Virus record (IMG/VR): IMGVR_UViG_3300044635_002180
Span: 52,216 to 116,215 of that record
Length of the DNA stretch: 64,000 nucleotides
Direction: 5' to 3' (one strand)
Origin: a virus
Both the position numbers and the translations under genes were made by a program. This document shows, in pieces, positions 3,022 through 62,341 of the stretch (within the stretch, counting starts at the first letter, position 1; the number at the start of each line of letters is the position of its first letter). The notes beneath the pieces were generated by a model. That model made no database searches, was not told the DNA's origin, and saw only the letters and a list, made by a program, of their open reading frames with translations.

Positions 3022-4920
3022 TCATGCATAACCAGCTGCTAACATTTGCTGTCTTACCTGCGTAGCAGTGTATTGCAAAGGAAATACATTATAATCTGTT
3101 GCTTGCATGTCTTTAGTTTGTTTTTGTGCAGCAGAAGAACTAAATCCAATTGAATTTACTGTTTTTTCTATTCTCAGCAATATGTCGTTTGTAATGGTTA
3201 TGGCTCTAATTTGTGCATCTGCTTTAGAATCTTGTGTCTTTTTTAAAGCTTCAAACAGACCTTTTAAGCCTTCATTATTCAATTGTGTAGCAGCTGCAAC
3301 ATTTGTTTTGTCATTAACCTTTAAATTAGGCGCTGTTTCAGCATCAGCAGCATTTGATGCTTGAGTTTCTTCAGTTGTTGAAAAGTAACCTTCAACTGAG
3401 TTCCACATTGATTTGGCCCATTCAACTGGTTTGGATACAATTTTCTTAACAAAAGATTTCATTGCTTCAATTTTAGTTGCAAGTGCGTTTTTGATGGTGC
3501 CGATAAAGTCAAACTTCTCAATTTCAAATTTCTCTGTTGTAATTGGTGTTGCAGCTTCTTGTTCTCCAGAGGTTATTAATGATGTTACCCATTCATACAC
3601 AGATGCAGCAGCATCAAATACAGCCCCTGCAGGTGATAATATGCCTTTGCCAATTAATTTGAGACCATCAACATAGTTTCCATTCTTGATCATTCCAATG
3701 CCATCAATGATGTCATGCACACCTTTGAACAAAGGCATTTTTTTAATTTTCTCCCAAATGCTTGAAAATTTTTCGCCAATATTATCAAAGAAATTAGCAA
3801 GCCCTAAACTTTTATTTTGAGCAGCTTTGTCTTTTTCTGTGTATGTAAAATCTCTGTACAGACTATAGAAGTCAGCAATTATGCCAAACCCTGGTATTGC
3901 ACCAGCTAATTCCAACAAAGTGCCAAGGTAATCGCCCTCCTTAAATTTTTCATATGCAAAATATAAATTTATTATGTCACCCAATCCAGGTACAAGTTTA
4001 AAAAGCTTTAGACCTTTTTTGAGTATATCACCAAACATGCCTCCTAGACTCTTCAAAAAAGTCTTTATAGCATCTGTTCCAGGTATGCTTTTAATTAGAT
4101 CTTTGCCCATATCAAAAACACCAGATAGACTTTTGAAAATTTTATCCTTTGCCTCCACCAATCCTTTTTTAATTGAATCAGGGAGAAGATCAAAAAGCGT
4201 TTCTGGCAATTTAAGAACTGTATCACCCATTGATTTAAGAGCTTTAAAACCTTTGTCAAAAACAAACGATATTAATGATGTTATTTTGCCCAATGTCTTT
4301 TTAACCATTTTTTCACCAAGCTTAACAGCTAATTTTCCTATTTGAGACAGTCCACTTCCTATGTCACTGCCAAAAGCCAGCAAACCTCCACCAAGCAACA
4401 GACCAAGTCCACTTAGCAGAGATGCCCAATCAAATGATTGCTTGTTATCTGCTTTTTTGTTGGAAAAGACATCAACCAAGTCTTTGATAACATCTTTGTC
4501 AATGCCTGCAATATAAACCTTCTTAGCATCATCCCTCTGAGTTAGCCTGTTGATATCTTCTTGTTCTGCTTGTTGTTTTTGTGCTTCTGCAGTCTCGTCT
4601 GAAGATTTTGTCAATACATCAAGCTTATCAAACATTTTTGTGCTTGCATCTTTTTGCTCTTTGCGTTCTTTTTCTTTATCAGATTTAAAAGCATCATTGA
4701 ATTTCTTGATTAAGTTGTCAATGCTCTTGTTGTCTAGTGAAACAATTTCACCTTGTCCTTTGGATTTGTTGTCATTGTCTTGCTGATCATCCCGGCTTAT
4801 GATGCTTGGTGCAGCTTCGTTAACAGCATTTTTTGACTGCTTGACATTGCTAATGTTACGCAGCTCATCTACAACTTCTTTTAGTTGCTTGATAAAATTA
4901 TCCAAAAATACTTGTTCCAC
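3022..4920 (-). CDS. putative tape-measure / gp29-like baseplate hub protein
   Basis: 632 aa; long helical and amphipathic stretches, Gly-rich hydrophobic segment 'LLSGLGLLLGGGLLAFG', 'LVPGLGDIINLYFAYEKF' repeats. Confidence 0.55.
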   Translation of the reverse strand: MEQVFLDNFIKQLKEVVDELRNISNVKQSKNAVNEAAPSIISRDDQQDNDNKSKGQGEIVSLDNKSIDNLIKKFNDAFKSDKEKERKEQKDASTKMFDKLDVLTKSSDETAEAQKQQAEQEDINRLTQRDDAKKVYIAGIDKDVIKDLVDVFSNKKADNKQSFDWASLLSGLGLLLGGGLLAFGSDIGSGLSQIGKLAVKLGEKMVKKTLGKITSLISFVFDKGFKALKSMGDTVLKLPETLFDLLPDSIKKGLVEAKDKIFKSLSGVFDMGKDLIKSIPGTDAIKTFLKSLGGMFGDILKKGLKLFKLVPGLGDIINLYFAYEKFKEGDYLGTLLELAGAIPGFGIIADFYSLYRDFTYTEKDKAAQNKSLGLANFFDNIGEKFSSIWEKIKKMPLFKGVHDIIDGIGMIKNGNYVDGLKLIGKGILSPAGAVFDAAASVYEWVTSLITSGEQEAATPITTEKFEIEKFDFIGTIKNALATKIEAMKSFVKKIVSKPVEWAKSMWNSVEGYFSTTEETQASNAADAETAPNLKVNDKTNVAAATQLNNEGLKGLFEALKKTQDSKADAQIRAITITNDILLRIEKTVNSIGFSSSAAQKQTKDMQATDYNVFPLQYTATQVRQQMLAAGYA

Positions 4921-4945
4921 TCATGTATTTATGGTTTATAAACTG

Positions 4946-5656
4946 TTAGAATAGTGGAGTCTGTATATCAAGATTTTTGCCGTTAAATGCTTGTTCAATT
5001 ACATCTTTTGCTTTTGTAATAAACTTTGCAACAGCATTATTGACTGATGCAGGCATTTGTTCTGCAATCTTTACATAAGAGCCAATGTCAGCAACATCAT
5101 CAAAACACACACTTTCATTTCGGATAGTTAATTTTTTAATGTGTTTAACAATTTCCAATACAAAGTAATCAGATGCAAGCTCTGAAGCACTGCGTGATGC
5201 ATTTTTGTTGCTGTTGATGAACCAATTGTTTATATCAGAATCGCGTTGCAGATCAGGCAGCTGCATCTCTACCATTATAGCTTCACCAAATGTTGCTGTA
5301 GCTTGTTGCAACTTTTCAACATCAATTGTTTTAGCGAAGGCATTTATTTCTTGAATTTGCTCTTTTGTTTCTTCTTCCTCTGCTTTAAGATTCAACAATA
5401 TAAACTCCCGATCAAATGTTGATACATCATTGCTGCTATCATCACAGCAGTTGTCTGTAATGATGCTGTTGAGTGCATTTATAATGCGAATATTATCCAA
5501 AGGGTTGTTGTTGATGTTGCCAATGATTTTTTTCTGCTGGAGCACACTAATGGGTCTGAATTTTTTTGTTTTCTTGGCCATTGGAACGTAGATATCAACA
5601 ATGGATTCATTGTTGATTGCTTCAAGATCTTTAAAAATTGCATCAAACTTATTCAT
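4946..5656 (-). CDS. baseplate hub assembly protein (gp26-like)
   Basis: 'KKFRPISVLQQKKII...STFDREFILLNLKA' matches the gp26 'FRP..VKE.K..L / FD.E..FL.LR' pattern. Confidence 0.6.
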   Translation of the reverse strand: MNKFDAIFKDLEAINNESIVDIYVPMAKKTKKFRPISVLQQKKIIGNINNNPLDNIRIINALNSIITDNCCDDSSNDVSTFDREFILLNLKAEEEETKEQIQEINAFAKTIDVEKLQQATATFGEAIMVEMQLPDLQRDSDINNWFINSNKNASRSASELASDYFVLEIVKHIKKLTIRNESVCFDDVADIGSYVKIAEQMPASVNNAVAKFITKAKDVIEQAFNGKNLDIQTPLF

Positions 5657-51749: not shown

Positions 51750-52420
51750 TAGGAATAAATTTGCAGAAACTCCTGATTGCTCTTGCTCCACTGTGCATCA
51801 TCTAGCGATCTCAATCCAGGTGATTCGTGAAATACATTTATGGGCCACACACCGATGCGCATCCCTTTAACATTTGCATCTATGCAGCTTGCAATGTCGT
51901 AATGATGAAAGTCAAAATTTTCATTCCATCTCCAATTCGTTTCAAGTGCCCGCGCAACATTTACTGCAACAAACAAGCCATCAACAATGGCTACTCGATC
52001 TGGCGTTGGTCCAAAACCAGTCATAACTTTGTGTTTGTCAAAAATGTGACCAGCATATCCTCTATGATCCTGTCTTTCACCCATGATGTGCCACAATGCT
52101 GGGTGCTGAATGCGCGGATTGCGCGTACCAGCCAATCCAACAATGTCATATTTTGATTCGCCGTACATTGCTTCATTGAGCTTAACATTGATCATTGCAT
52201 CATCAATGTATACATCATCATGCACAAACACAATGCGATCGTGTTCCTTGGCTATTTTTTCGTTCAAAAACTGGTTATAAACCTTGCTCAAGCCAATTTT
52301 ATTGTTGGTAATAATGTGCAGCACATCATCTTCACACTGCCAATTAACAGCACTTTTAAATAGCATTGTATCTTCTTCATCTGCCTTTTGTGTGCAGCTC
52401 ACATATAAAGTAGTTTTCAT
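51749..52420 (-). CDS. GT-A / family 2-like glycosyltransferase
   Basis: 'YN..VFVHDDV..VGLAG..VDGLF..FHHYDIASC..HESPG'; start refined to MKTTLYV at 52420. Confidence 0.8.
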   Translation of the reverse strand: MKTTLYVSCTQKADEEDTMLFKSAVNWQCEDDVLHIITNNKIGLSKVYNQFLNEKIAKEHDRIVFVHDDVYIDDAMINVKLNEAMYGESKYDIVGLAGTRNPRIQHPALWHIMGERQDHRGYAGHIFDKHKVMTGFGPTPDRVAIVDGLFVAVNVARALETNWRWNENFDFHHYDIASCIDANVKGMRIGVWPINVFHESPGLRSLDDAQWSKSNQEFLQIYS

Positions 52421-58129: not shown

Positions 58130-59127
58130 TCAACCAAAAAGATCAAATAAATCGGAATACATCTGTTCTGTTGGTTTATGTGCAGGCCACTTAACTGCAG
58201 TATAAAATCTTTCCACCACGGAGAATACAATCTTTTCAAACATTTTCTCGTATGCAGGCTTGAATATGCCATGAAATTCAGTTGGGTAGTAGTATTTAAA
58301 TGCAATGGTCTCTACACCATACTTGTTGGGTGTAGCAATGTACATCCATCTGATTTTATCACCTGACTGAATAGCTTCATATTTTGATATGATGTCAAGC
58401 TTTTTGAGCAATACATTATAGTTGTGAGCAGACTTCACATGCACCGGAGCACCTTTGGGCAATGAAAACTCTTTGGCCTTGCTTGCATGCTTGTCAAGAT
58501 CTTTGATGCCCATGACATATGCTACTTCTTCTGGCTTGAGTGCTTTGAACACATCATATGCTTCATTAACAACAGCATTGGTTTTGATTCTATCGCGTGT
58601 ATCAAGCATTGTTTCAATGATTTTTTTAACGTATGGTTTGATGGCTTTTGGCATAGAAGTTCTCACCACCTCCACACCAACATACTTCCACTTATCACAC
58701 TCAATTCCTTCATCATCCACCACATGTGCAACATATCGCTTCTTTTCTAAAAATAAGCCTTTGTCAATGATGGACTCTCTCTTGAAGACAATTCTAGGAT
58801 CAAGTGAGTTTAGCTCATCTTTGAGCTTGGTATTAATTTGATTGTTTATATAAACATTTAGACCGTCAATAATTTCATGCACCTTGCCATTGACTTTGTT
58901 ATTAATCAACAAAGGTTCATTGTATTTTTTGAGCAGTGGCTCAATGCACAAATACACCGAATCGGTATCACCTGCTACAGCAATATCAGGAAAATTATTA
59001 GTACCTAAAACAGAAGCAGTATATTCTCTTGCTTGAGTTCGAGCAGTCTTAATGATGTACTGACCAGTCAGTGTGATGGATGATGCAATATCATCATCAC
59101 CCAGCGGCGCATTTTTATTGCCCATGT
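58130..59127 (-). CDS. gp43: DNA polymerase B, fragment C exon 2 (palm motif C and thumb)
   Basis: 'ITLTGQ..AGDTDSVY..FKRE..KKRY..GVEVVRTS'. Confidence 0.95.
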
Positions 59128-59367
59128 CATTTATCTTCTACTTTGCTCGCTAGACAAAATACGCTTTTACGCTGCTATACATCGCTGTATAGATGAGACT
59201 ATATCATCACTAAAAGTGTGCCCCGTTTCGGTATGCTTATACCTACCTGCTTGCGCAGTAGTCGTTGAACGTTCGCAAATTATGCGCTTCGCTGCTGATT
59301 GTCTCAGTGAGAGTTTCCAGCAATTAGAGGCATTTGCTTGCTTTTTACAGCAAGGGGCTAAGAGTCA
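59128..59367 (-). ncRNA. group I intron (240 nt, no ORF) in PolB motif B
   Basis: P1 GGGU|UGA..UUAGCCC with U.G at the 5' splice site; P AATTGCTGGAAA, Q AATCAGCAG, R GTTCAACGACTA, S GATATAGTCT; terminal G; splicing restores NSVYG-Y-MGNKNAP. Confidence 0.93.
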
Positions 59368-59479
59368 ACCCGTATACAGAATTAATAAAAATTTTAATGC
59401 ATAATTGCTTTGCATTTAACTGGGTTATTTTGTCTCTCAGATAGCGTGCTCGCTCCTGTAGTTGTTGTTTGTTTATCAT
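59368..59479 (-). CDS. gp43: DNA polymerase B, fragment C exon 1 (MINKQQLQERARYLRDKITQLNAKQLCIKIFINSVYG), not in the ORF track
   Basis: contains motif B KxxxNSxYG; has its own ATG and an upstream TTGATT box. Confidence 0.9.
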
Positions 59480-59543
59480 AAAAATTTATATAGATTAATA
59501 CCTAAAATATAAAAATCAACCACTATAACCATAAATACAGTAT

Positions 59544-59819
59544 ATGGTCAAGACATTTGAAGTTTAAGCATCTTATAGACGGGCACAATATTATGTTACT
59601 CTGCTTGATTGTGATACGGGGAGTGAGCATTCTAAATTTCTTATAGAATGGATAAAAAAATATAGCTACGCGAAAGATGGTATTATGGATAGAATCCGCT
59701 CAGCTGATTTTAAAACTCCGGTAAGCATGCGAAAATGCAAGAAGAATATTGTCGTTTTAAAAGCTGTAAAGAGGAAGCCTACTGAAGAAGAGTATCTGCA
59801 ATTACTATCACTATTTTAA
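59544..59819 (+). pseudogene. antisense 92-codon frame with in-frame TAA at codon 8, between PolB fragments B and C
   Basis: TAAATA-N6-ATG GTC AAG ACA TTT GAA GTT TAA; the same frame then stays open for 83 more codons. Confidence 0.6.
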
Positions 59820-61073
59820 CTGATCTTCAATATTCTTCAATTCCTTTTTAAGCTTCATCATTTCCTTGCGAACAGCAACACGCTCTTTGTAATATTCATC
59901 TACAATCTCTGGTAGAATTCCTTTGACTTTTTGGCTAAACAAAACCTTGGCTTTGGTTATGGCAATTTTTTCCTGATTTACAAATTGTGCAAACTTAGCC
60001 AGTGGCAAGTTAAAAACCTGACCATTGATGTGTTTGATGGTTACACTTTTATCATCTGTATCAATGATGTTACCTACCTTTGTCTCTGGAGACAAATTGA
60101 GACTAATCATGATGTTGGGGTACAGTGAATTAGCATCAAAAGATACAACATTGCTTTGAAAGCCCTCCATGGGCTCTGCAACAAATGCACCCGGATTTTT
60201 ATCACCTTCACCATCACGAACAAATGTAGGCAAGAATTGTGATCTTTGACGAGCACGAATGGCAGCAGTTCCTGTGATTGTAGACAAGGTGCTCATTGCA
60301 TTTTCCATGGTGGTCAGGCCCATGTAAGCCAACATTCTCAGCAGTGGTACATACTGCAATTTTAAATCCATCTTCACAAGCAGTGCAACGTCTTGCAAGT
60401 TATAATCTACAAACAATTGCCAATCTTCTTTTGCTAAGCTTGCAAGATTGGTATTGCCATAATCAACCTTTCTCTCACCCAGTTCAAGTTCTGCAATGTA
60501 ATCGAGTTTATAGCTCTCGCGGTTTGTAAAGCTAAAACGCTTGTAAATATCAATGTAATCAACGCATGAAACTCCGTCAATGTACCAGCGGATTTGCGGC
60601 TTGCCAAATATGCCGCTGTTGAGAGTTCTACAATACACTCTACCAACAGGTGAAAGCTTTGATGAATACTCTTCACTCAAAATATTATTGATTCTGTTGA
60701 TGATGTATGGAATATCAAACCCTGCACTATTCCAACCTGTCAACAAGTCACATTCCAAGCTGCTGAAGAACTCTATAAAATTCACCAACAGTTGGCGCTC
60801 TGTTGCACAATGAACAAACTTCAAGTCACTTCTGTTGTGTTTATAATCAGTTGTACCCCAAGAGAAAAACTGATTGGTCAAACTGTCATGAATGGTAATA
60901 ATGTTGATGGGATGCTTAGCATATTCAGCTGCAGGAAACTCTGTTTGCTGAACATAACAACTGTTATCATAATTAACCCACTGCTGTTTCTCCTCATCCC
61001 ACACTTCATATTCTTCTCGCATATTTTTATTACACGCGAAATCACCCAATTTGATATACTGATACTGTTCCAT
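59811..61073 (-). CDS. gp43: DNA polymerase B, fragment B (exonuclease II/III, palm motif A, first fingers helix)
   Basis: 'TGWNSAGFDIPY', 'SYKLD', 'YNLQDV', 'SFDANSLYP'; ends in coiled coil 'RKEMMKLKKELK'. Confidence 0.93.
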   Translation of the reverse strand: MEQYQYIKLGDFACNKNMREEYEVWDEEKQQWVNYDNSCYVQQTEFPAAEYAKHPINIITIHDSLTNQFFSWGTTDYKHNRSDLKFVHCATERQLLVNFIEFFSSLECDLLTGWNSAGFDIPYIINRINNILSEEYSSKLSPVGRVYCRTLNSGIFGKPQIRWYIDGVSCVDYIDIYKRFSFTNRESYKLDYIAELELGERKVDYGNTNLASLAKEDWQLFVDYNLQDVALLVKMDLKLQYVPLLRMLAYMGLTTMENAMSTLSTITGTAAIRARQRSQFLPTFVRDGEGDKNPGAFVAEPMEGFQSNVVSFDANSLYPNIMISLNLSPETKVGNIIDTDDKSVTIKHINGQVFNLPLAKFAQFVNQEKIAITKAKVLFSQKVKGILPEIVDEYYKERVAVRKEMMKLKKELKNIEDQLK

Positions 61074-61075
61074 AG

Positions 61076-61888
61076 TTATTTGTTGCGCAGGTTTAAAATT
61101 CTTGTTCGTACTTTTGATGATTTTGAATTAATATAGTTTTCAAACTCTTGATCAGACATACACTTAATACGAACTTTCATAATTGACTGTTGCCGTGTCG
61201 CTTTTCCCTTTTTATTATTTGATATATTAATACTTCTCACGGCATGATCAACACATGTTGAATGTAAACTCTTGTTAAGTCGTTGTTGCTTTTCAGCAAC
61301 ATCTAATCCGTTTATATATTCTTTTATTTTTTTAGATCGTTTTAAATTAGATTCTTCACTTTGAATACATCCGCGCCTTGATTGAAAAAAACATTCACGA
61401 CTACACATTGTAGCATATCTTGTTTTCACACGCCTACCACAGTTGTTTCCACATAAAGGCATAGTCATTAATCTCTGCATCTTATTGTGACTGCCACGGA
61501 TTTTTAATTTTTCTGATACTACAGTTTTAATATAATCACTTTTCATAGGGTGATTTTTTGAAAACAACTCTCTAGCACACTTGAATAGCTTTGCATTTAT
61601 TTTTCGCTTATCACTATTATGTGTACACATTCTATTAAATGCAGCTGATAATTTCATAGCTCTTGCAGTGTAAGTAACATCCGCTTCTGCAAGTTTTTGA
61701 TAACCCACTGCTAGGAGGTGATGTAAAACAAAATGCTCTTTTGCTGTAACTTTAACAATATTATCAGCTATATCATTACCACCAAGACACTTGGGTAATA
61801 CATGGTGTCTCTCACAATAGATGCTTTCATCTAAGCATCTGTTTTGGCAATTTATAATAATTTTATCATATACTTTTAAGTAGTTCAT
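61076..61888 (-). CDS. HNH homing endonuclease (MobE-like) inserted between PolB fragments
   Basis: 'YCERHHVLPKCLGGND..NIVKVTAKEHFVLHHLL'; own TAAATA-N5-ATG. Confidence 0.88.
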   Translation of the reverse strand: MNYLKVYDKIIINCQNRCLDESIYCERHHVLPKCLGGNDIADNIVKVTAKEHFVLHHLLAVGYQKLAEADVTYTARAMKLSAAFNRMCTHNSDKRKINAKLFKCARELFSKNHPMKSDYIKTVVSEKLKIRGSHNKMQRLMTMPLCGNNCGRRVKTRYATMCSRECFFQSRRGCIQSEESNLKRSKKIKEYINGLDVAEKQQRLNKSLHSTCVDHAVRSINISNNKKGKATRQQSIMKVRIKCMSDQEFENYINSKSSKVRTRILNLRNK

Positions 61889-61902
61889 AGGAGTATTTAT
61901 CT

Positions 61903-62310
61903 CTATGTCGACCTTTTTTTGCGTATTTTAATCTGATTATCATTTTTATACTTGCTTGTATCCACCTCAATGTCAATCGTAACAACACGCACCGGAAATT
62001 TAGCAAAATCCTCATCCTGGTTGTGTTGCCAAAACATATCAATGAGGTGTTGCTGCACTGGATTAATATTTTCAAACAATCTCTTGCTTCCACACTCTTT
62101 GACAAATCTGCTGCGATCAAATTGTGTCTTGAACGTACGTTTGCGCAATTTGGTATTAAAGATGCTCACATCTTTGCCAGACATATCCTCAAGCATGAGA
62201 TAAGGCTGGTAAGAACTCATGTACGAAATTCTATTACCATTCTCATCCCATGAATATATCTTCATACATTCATCCTGCGGAATATAAACTGCATTTCTGT
62301 ATCCTATCAT
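61903..62310 (-). CDS. gp43: DNA polymerase B, fragment A (N-terminal domain up to the Exo I motif)
   Basis: 'YRN..SWDENGNR..YQPYL..RVVTIDIEV' followed by a non-polymerase tail; start refined to ATG 62310. Confidence 0.88.
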   Translation of the reverse strand: MIGYRNAVYIPQDECMKIYSWDENGNRISYMSSYQPYLMLEDMSGKDVSIFNTKLRKRTFKTQFDRSRFVKECGSKRLFENINPVQQHLIDMFWQHNQDEDFAKFPVRVVTIDIEVDTSKYKNDNQIKIRKKRST

Positions 62311-62341
62311 ATAAGACAAGATAATGTATCAAGAAGCATAA

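Follow-up and report, generated by a model that had tools for sequence, protein, structure and literature searches.

A cassette consisting of a predicted homing-endonuclease gene and two flanking peptide-coding segments has recently been acquired by the DNA polymerase gene of a lake phage, and the two peptides are the halves of one conserved module of about 60 amino acids. The gene encodes a T4-type family B DNA polymerase (polB) in several minus-strand pieces, named here fragments A, B and C, within a stretch of 64,000 nucleotides from a virus (IMG/VR record IMGVR_UViG_3300044635_002180, positions 52,216 to 116,215), which was analysed as a whole and is called the window throughout. The cassette occupies positions 60942-61962 of the window, at the Exo I motif, where it replaced four codons (YSPD). 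It adds a basic tail to the C-terminus of fragment A and an acidic head to the N-terminus of fragment B, with a gene of the HNH type between them. We think it probable that this cassette recently entered the polB of the T4-like lake phage and that the two module halves hold fragments A and B together non-covalently, without splicing.

A recently acquired cassette at the Exo I motif

A scan of IMG/VR, queried with aligned relatives of fragment B, yielded 80 loci, among them L004, whose polB is uninterrupted and shows 99-100% protein identity and 95-99% DNA identity to the pieces in the window. The joined reading of these pieces corresponds to the 852-amino-acid uninterrupted L004 protein. The core of fragment A is 99% identical in protein to L004 positions 1706-2062 (18 nucleotide differences, one amino-acid change), and the core of fragment B is 100% identical in protein over 366 amino acids; the A and B cores together differ from L004 by 30 nucleotides and two amino acids. 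The edges of the cassette can be read directly from the nucleotide alignment, in which homology to L004 ends at 61957 and restarts at 60941. At the Exo I site, L004 has twelve bases coding for YSPD, whereas the window has the A tail, the HNH gene and the B head. A first-pass annotation of the same DNA, made from the letters alone, had described extra residues after DIEV in fragment A and before TEFP in fragment B, with an HNH gene in between, and had placed them at 60940-61960; all these sequence statements are correct, and the coordinates agree with the edges of the cassette in the alignment to L004. Its further statement, that DIE and FP normally lie just a few residues apart, holds for L004 (DIEV-YSPD-EFP) and for 106 of the 120 nearest relatives of fragment B, which carry no insert.

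Two further interruptions of the gene in the window, a break at the tip of the fingers and a group I intron, are likewise missing from L004, and all three interruptions are therefore recent in the window lineage. In L095, which is 92-95% identical, the fingers break and the intron are present while the Exo I site is empty, so that the Exo I cassette moves independently of the other two. Downstream of the cassette, 12 mismatches to L004 occur in 1.1 kb, four of them in the first 30 nucleotides and eight in the next 1069, and the cluster of four beside the junction would fit a co-conversion tract. The guanine-plus-cytosine (GC) content is 0.28-0.36 in the cassette, with 0.28 in the A tail, against 0.38-0.39 in the polB core. 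Taken together, the mismatch cluster, the low GC content and the L095 pattern fit import from a foreign donor by recombinational repair. The idea that the two peptides and the HNH gene form one mobile cassette, put forward in the first-pass annotation, is thus upheld by a 99-100% identical allele that has none of it, along with the putative co-conversion tract at its junction.

Contigs from other lake-water metagenomes span both cassette junctions without differences, which shows that the cassette is not an assembly artefact, and the same allele occurs in several lake metagenomes. In the four lake metagenome runs examined, where cover was low and patchy, there was no contig joint that skips the cassette.

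The open reading frame (ORF) between the two peptides codes for 270 amino acids, carries an HNH-type motif within its first 60 residues and matches PHROG 655 'homing endonuclease' (E 1e-31), as well as PHROG 10088 and 12434. By tblastn, genes with a MobD-like or homing-endonuclease annotation in more than 1000 T4-like phage records share 25-33% identity with it. Its close relatives comprise 13 proteins, two of which are 86-87% identical and of equal length; relatives at 40% identity occupy the same position in L007 and L086, and a scan of IMG/VR with the single HNH protein returned two loci. On these matches, the gene is assigned to the Mob-type free-standing homing endonucleases of T4-like phages. 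Its cleavage would be specific for the empty polB allele, as suggested by the existence of such an allele and by the putative co-conversion tract.

Fragment A, the HNH ORF and fragment B are each in a different frame (three ORFs, three frames), and the ATG of the B head lies 2 nucleotides past the HNH stop codon. The box GATAAATA at 61894-61901 (minus strand), 5 nucleotides before the HNH start codon, matches the T4 late-promoter box at seven of eight positions and is a consensus match only. No RNA hairpins masking the start of the HNH gene or of fragment B were indicated, the folding energies being no better than those of shuffled sequences (z -0.48 and +1.27).

The flanking peptides are halves of one conserved module

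An alignment of relatives shows that some polBs unbroken at the Exo I site hold a contiguous insert of about 60 amino acids between DIE and FP. The tail in the window aligns with the first third of this insert and the head with the remainder, and further relatives are split-B proteins that open with the same head. A profile of the module, which the B head matches with an E of 1e-20, was searched against 1.84 billion representative proteins at E ≤ 1e-3. It gave 62 matches, namely 57 T4-like polBs and five repeat or Kelch-like proteins; the module lies at residues 115-190 in about 20 of the polB matches, and in about 36 it opens a split fragment at the N-terminus. That the profile finds 57 polB proteins at this threshold means that the peptides are not chance sequence. 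All proteins gathered contain 47 split and 29 contiguous modules, in host polBs with identities down to 25-33%. The tail and the head are therefore halves of one conserved module specific to T4-like polB at the Exo I site.

The DNA context was read for four split lineages, represented by the window, L007/L008, L086 and L096. The first three share the order of tail, HNH gene and head in the same relative frames, and their tails end in the same basic motif; the three elements thus recur as a unit in polBs only 40-58% identical. The fourth lineage, L096, is split at the same turn of the module (locus positions 3113-3413), with only about 90 nucleotides between the stop and start codons and no endonuclease gene. 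The host polBs are about 58% (L007/L008), 43% (L086) and 31% (L096) identical to that of the window, and the corresponding heads are 44%, 65% and 78% identical, the last value over 23 amino acids. In two lineages, then, the head is more similar than the host polB (65% versus 43% in L086, 78% versus 31% in L096). The L096 polB, at about 31% identity to that of the window, is cyanophage- or pelagiphage-like and lies beside clamp-loader genes.

Paired peptides around endonuclease genes in unrelated host genes, which the first-pass annotation had anticipated, were not found. No module was detected in an unrelated host gene among the 1.84 billion representatives or among 230 IMG/VR pattern matches, and it occurs only in polB, at one site. 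There is no second copy of the module in the 116-kb record to which the window belongs. Deposited phage genomes gave no module match by tblastn, with either the contiguous module or the head of the window, and none when the whole locus was compared by megablast; among the cultured phages of the searched collection, not one has the module. A profile search of the PDB sequences returned only a Kelch-blade-like match to the beta-3/beta-4 hairpin of the module (YEVWDEE...W), and this likeness is probably at the level of the motif, through convergence of a tight hairpin.

Predicted fold and charge of the module

Contiguous modules from two loci were each modelled by themselves with AlphaFold2. The model from L087, built on 13 aligned rows, has a predicted local distance difference test (pLDDT) score of 78 and a predicted template modelling (pTM) score of 0.58, and that from L098, built on 29 rows, has a pLDDT of 88 and a pTM of 0.70. 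Both models show a beta-beta-alpha-beta-beta mini-domain with a short helix, in line with the earlier suggestion that the two peptides belong to one small domain. In both, the position of the endonuclease gene corresponds to the turn of the first hairpin (beta-1/beta-2), so that after the split fragment A ends in the basic strand 1 (IKIRKK motif) and fragment B starts with strand 2, followed by the helix, the acidic strand 3 (YEVWDEE) and strand 4.

The net charge is +5 in the A tail of the window and -5 in its B head. Across all four split lineages with readable DNA, the window included, tails carry +4 or +5 and heads -5 to -10; the charge contrast that had been pointed out in the window is real and has been kept across these lineages. 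The basic end of the tail is invariant in 10 split-A proteins and variable in contiguous forms. From the models, the two halves would rebuild the mini-domain by strand addition, tethering the DIE strand to the next strand of the core.

Patchy distribution and the order of events

Among the 120 nearest relatives of fragment B, five carry a contiguous and nine a split module. In a polB core tree of these 120 proteins, from which the module columns were excluded, the 14 module-bearing tips need 13 state changes, and nearly every one of them has a nearest neighbour without the module. Two polBs, P0028 and P0055, share 95% identity, but the module is present only in P0028, in contiguous form; it takes the place of four residues, with the same boundaries as in the window compared with L004. 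The patchiness of the tree and this pair of proteins indicate that the split and contiguous forms are both recent presence/absence polymorphisms. The first-pass annotation had named, as evidence that would speak against its reading, uninterrupted polBs that carry the same insert of about 60 amino acids as an ordinary loop with no link to endonucleases. Half of this holds: uninterrupted polBs do carry the insert, but there it is just as patchy, and as recently gained or lost, as in split form, and is not an ordinary loop without a link to the endonuclease.

In a tree of the module itself, based on about 46 residues, the split or contiguous state needs 15 changes, compared with 23 when the labels are shuffled, and the linker between the first two strands varies in length in the contiguous forms. 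The overall pattern fits a homing cycle in which an empty site is invaded, the endonuclease gene then decays or is deleted, and the whole element is possibly lost. Endonuclease decay is seen in the window itself, since the GIY-YIG gene at the second break is internally deleted.

A proposed non-covalent clasp between fragments A and B

In the mechanism that we propose, the HNH endonuclease would cut empty polB alleles during co-infection, and repair would copy the whole heterology, module halves included, into the recipient allele. Fragments A and B would then be translated separately, the translation of B probably being coupled to termination of the HNH frame. The basic strand that ends fragment A would add to the acidic piece that opens fragment B (beta-2, helix, beta-3 and beta-4), and the rebuilt mini-domain would tether the DIE strand to the following strand of the core. 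The polymerase would thus work as a non-covalent complex of fragments A, B and C, with no RNA or protein splicing at the Exo I site. When the endonuclease gene is later lost, the outcome would be a gene that is still split but lacks the endonuclease, or else a contiguous module in frame.

We infer from the fold and charge pattern that the halves bind each other. The split polymerase is probably an active enzyme. The Pfam families DNA_pol_B_exo1 and DNA_pol_B match the polB pieces, in which Exo I-III and motifs A, B and C are present and collinear, and all catalytic motifs are intact across the pieces. No other polymerase was found in the 116-kb record, which is 55% complete. With intact motifs, mostly synonymous changes, the status of sole polymerase in the record and an occurrence in several metagenomes, the polymerase looks functional.

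Several points weigh against this interpretation. The cores of A and B share an extensive native interface, which might hold them together without the tails; in the split NrdA of phage Aeh1, the tails are not needed for heterodimer formation (PMC3045599). The contiguous modules (29 of 76) are more variable than the split ones, and the module may predate the endonuclease gene and not be its device. Either the module or the cassette may have come first, and the endonuclease gene may have settled later in the loop of an existing module. Since the record is only 55% complete, there may also be a second polymerase elsewhere in the genome.

Likeness to inteins and other explanations of the module

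The first-pass annotation had seen in the two halves a resemblance to the N-terminal strands of a Hint/intein domain. This likeness does recur among the structural matches, but it is statistically weak and finds no support in sequence. For neither module model was there a Foldseek match with E < 0.9 or a VIA match with Z ≥ 5, and the VIA guidance states that Z < 8 can reflect a common arrangement. Among the top 31 Foldseek rows with model 1, about 14 were inteins or other Hint domains, as were about 20 of the 50 VIA rows; model 2 gave about seven Foldseek rows and about 12 VIA rows of this kind. These matches, which include the Hedgehog Hint domain, had Z values of 2-4.2 and Foldseek E values of about 1-5. 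The intein matches are co-linear from intein residue 1, as with the N-fragment of Npu DnaE, where residues 3-52 of the model lie on chain residues -1 to 46, and the 33-amino-acid N-fragment of an atypically split intein superimposes at 1.5-1.8 Å over 30-32 residues. The best single matches to the better model were the BRK and GYF domains (Z 4.2, root-mean-square deviation 2.4 Å over 47 residues), which have a similar small beta-beta-alpha-beta(-beta) arrangement. Unlike the module, they are eukaryotic protein-interaction domains, with neither sequence similarity nor a contextual link to it, and the likeness is probably that of a common small fold.

At the level of sequence, Pfam returned nothing for the module at E ≤ 10, hence no Hint or intein match, the ESM Atlas gave no usable module match, and hhalign of the module against 39 intein N-fragments of the same polB family gave a probability of 0.14%. 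The residues required for splicing (Cys1, TxxH and His-Asn), noted as missing in the window, are indeed not there. Neither the block B TxxH nor the terminal His-Asn with its +1 nucleophile is present in the 21 contiguous modules, which have a variable end before S/T/G/N-x-FP. The column of intein residue 1 is unconserved in an alignment of 29 rows, with C, S, L, H, T, R, G, M, K, N, P and E. Rfam found no intron inside the cassette, the sole intron being at 59128-59367. Membership in the intein family is not supported.

Inteins do occur elsewhere in these polymerases. In many relatives (P0064, P0069, P0106, P0091, P0044, P0082, P0100 and some 30 others), the protein terminates in an intein N-fragment directly after the DTDS motif; these fragments match Pfam Intein_splicing and have no Cys at their start. 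The same polB family thus combines trans-splicing at motif C with apparently non-splicing breaks elsewhere. Some proteins combine an Exo I head with a motif C split intein. The module-bearing P0166 (residues about 241-643) and P0176 (residues about 40-573) have a further insertion of 400-460 amino acids about 70 residues past FP, probably a complete intein, endonuclease domain included, at yet another site.

It is possible, although we hold this only tentatively, that the module descends from an atypically split intein which lost blocks B, F and G, became splicing-dead and kept its strand-complementation affinity. Such a descent concerns the origin of the module and is compatible with the clasp mechanism. 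The recurrence of inteins and Hint domains among the weak structural matches, co-linear from intein residue 1, points this way, as do the split inteins at another site in relatives of the window polB. The 19-residue tail is also near in length to the N-fragments of about 25 amino acids of natural atypical split inteins (PMC11766414), and an intein origin of the NrdA tails was considered by Crona et al. (PMC3045599). The descent is made doubtful by the structural scores, none of which reaches a Z of 5 and which BRK and GYF equal or exceed, by the silence of Pfam and hhalign, by the unconserved residue 1 and the missing TxxH and terminal His-Asn, and by the size of the module, 60 amino acids in all against at least about 120 for mini-inteins.

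Somewhat less probable, and in our view rather unlikely, is that the module is an older lineage-specific surface-loop insertion of the exonuclease domain. The HNH gene would then have landed in a tolerant turn, the native interface would re-associate the two halves of the polymerase, and the module halves would travel only as part of the heterology copied during repair. Many polBs of high divergence do hold contiguous modules (20 of the 57 profile matches, 29 of 76 overall), whose basic strand and linker are more variable than those of the split forms, and the Aeh1 halves bind each other without tails (PMC3045599). However, contiguous modules are as patchy as split ones, and P0028, with the same four-residue replacement, is 95% identical to a module-less polB; an old, vertically inherited loop is therefore disfavoured. 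Moreover, the invariant basic end and the conserved charge contrast are specific to split forms, and the module is often more conserved than its host polB.

It is very improbable that polB is no more than a pseudogene, in a genome that is defective or wrongly assembled, and that the added peptides are meaningless read-through into inserted DNA. The three interruptions in one gene and the incomplete metagenomic contig could suggest it, but all the pieces are open with every catalytic motif intact, the peptides are conserved in polBs as distant as 25-33% identity, independent lake metagenomes contain the same junctions, the substitutions relative to L004 are almost all synonymous, and the record holds no other polymerase. 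Least credible is that the B head is a degenerate duplicate of the pre-Exo I segment of polB itself (a target duplication): MAFFT and tblastn repeatedly placed the head on this segment of insert-less polBs, but the contiguous forms show the head continuing the tail as one domain, and we rejected the idea after the profile of 21 modules, compared with that of 116 pre-Exo I segments, gave a probability of 0.4% over five columns.

Organization of the locus and its other interruptions

The features of the locus are listed in Table 1.

Table 1. Features of the interrupted polB gene, in positions of the window
Feature	Position	Strand	Remarks
polB fragment A, whole ORF	62319..61903	-	138 aa; DIEV, then a tail of 19 aa and a TAG stop
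polB fragment A core	61963..62319	-	119 aa; N-terminal domain to Exo I motif DIEV
A tail	61906..61962	-	19 residues, net +5; ends in IKIRKK plus three residues; strand beta-1 of the module
TAG stop of fragment A	61903-61905	-	
Spacer	61889..61902	-	14 nt; carries GATAAATA close upstream of the HNH start codon
Predicted HNH homing-endonuclease gene, Mob-type, free-standing	61076..61888	-	270 aa, apparently intact
polB fragment B, whole ORF	61073..59811	-	420 aa; 43 extra residues, then T-EFP
B head	60945..61073	-	43 residues, net -5; beta-2, helix, beta-3 (YEVWDEE) and beta-4 of the module
polB fragment B core	59811..60944	-	Rest of exonuclease domain (Exo II, III), motif A, first fingers helix
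Putative co-conversion tract, 3' side of cassette	60912..60941	-	Mismatch cluster relative to L004
Second break (fingers tip) with decayed antisense GIY-YIG endonuclease gene	59480..59810	+	331-nt gap; outside the Exo I cassette
Group I intron in motif B of fragment C	59128..59367	-	Rfam RF00028
polB fragment C	58130..59479	-	Exon 1 59479..59368, exon 2 59127..58130; motifs B and C, palm, thumb

At the fingers break, L095 holds an intact antisense GIY-YIG ORF of 296 amino acids (4623-5513). Positions 59480-59810 of the window retain the two ends of this gene, 86% and 93% identical to L095 in nucleotides, while about 600 nucleotides between them have been deleted. This break also comes with added residues: ten that end fragment B (59811-59842) and about 19 that start fragment C (59423-59479) replace 13 residues of L004. 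These peptides look helical and would lengthen two helices of the fingers, and they may form a second clasp of a different kind.

The intron, of 240 nucleotides and with no ORF, lies inside motif B and matches RF00028 with 81.6 bits (E 2e-20); joining the exons around it restores the L004 reading. Just downstream of the intron, about 23 mismatches to L004 fall within 210 nucleotides (58865-59075), a cluster that appears consistent with co-conversion.

Relation to known systems

The closest known counterpart is nrdA of Aeromonas phage Aeh1, whose arrangement nrdA-a / mobE / nrdA-b was reportedly described by Friedrich et al. in 2007. To our knowledge, it is the only endonuclease-split gene shown to rely on tails derived from the insertion. 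In Aeh1, the HNH gene mobE splits nrdA, and a basic NrdA-a tail and an acidic NrdA-b tail, both derived from the insertion, are essential for activity (PMC3045599). Crona et al. (2011) predicted further cases and speculated on an intein origin of the tails (PMC3045599).

The two loci have much in common. In each, a free-standing Mob-type HNH gene breaks an essential gene with a role in replication, at a point between adjacent beta-strands and close to active-site residues; the upstream fragment has a basic C-terminal tail and the downstream fragment an acidic N-terminal one, neither of which is present in uninterrupted homologues; the endonuclease gene abuts or overlaps the downstream fragment; and the insert is of lower GC content. 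Aeh1 does without RNA or protein splicing, as the window probably does. They differ in the host gene, nrdA there and polB here. The Aeh1 tails are unique to one phage, and their origin could therefore not be studied, whereas those of the window belong to a conserved, foldable module of 60 amino acids that is found in dozens of divergent polBs, also in contiguous and endonuclease-less forms. Near-identical alleles from before and after the insertion are available here, while the function of the tails was established biochemically in Aeh1 and is proposed here. The expectation in the first-pass annotation of an undescribed kind of system does not stand, given that insertion-derived, oppositely charged tails had already been demonstrated by Crona et al. 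in 2011 (PMC3045599). What is new is a conserved, foldable and mobile module at a new site in polB, together with natural before and after alleles.

Free-standing endonuclease genes also accompany other breaks of this polymerase gene. The T4-related Aeromonas phages 25, 31 and 44RR are said to have a split gene 43 (43A/43B), in work attributed to Petrov et al. in 2006 and 2010. The split gene 43 of Aeromonas phages is cited in a passage of PMC2677866. As in the window, the pieces of a T4-type polB are translated separately there, and a free-standing endonuclease gene and a group I intron accompany them; the split gene 43 matches the second break of the window, with its position at the fingers tip, its decayed GIY-YIG gene and its motif B intron. 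The Exo I break, in contrast, sits in the exonuclease domain, with an HNH gene instead of a GIY-YIG gene and with a conserved split mini-domain.

Fractured genes in which an endonuclease gene stands between the parts of a split intein (Dassa et al. 2009, PMC2677866) show the same succession as the window, in which the N-terminal part of the host protein plus a short peptide is followed by the endonuclease gene and then by a peptide plus the C-terminal part of the host protein. In atypically split inteins such as AceL-TerL, the N-fragment has about 25 amino acids (PMC11766414), a short upstream fragment comparable to the 19 amino acids in the window, and the module weakly but recurrently resembles the first 30-50 residues of the Hint fold. 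Unlike the module, these systems splice; a module of about 60 amino acids without the residue-1 nucleophile, block B and His-Asn fits no known splicing mechanism, and its halves would therefore stay non-covalently joined.

Significance

As a natural pair of complementing peptides of 19 and 43 amino acids, the module halves could serve as a small non-covalent split tag. If the module is indeed an intein relic, it would have been retained because the strand complementation left between its two pieces keeps the polymerase fragments together. The cassette would then transport a stub of an intein that no longer splices and acts as a portable, non-covalent clasp, and this would be direct evidence for the route from intein to tail on which Crona et al. 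speculated.

The stages of a homing cycle are found side by side in natural populations of these phages, from the empty site (L004) through the split with an endonuclease gene (window, L007, L086) and the split without one (L096) to the contiguous, in-frame scar (P0028, P0004). These stages make it testable whether such tails descend from inteins, and also how a free-standing endonuclease invades the catalytic core of an essential gene without killing it.

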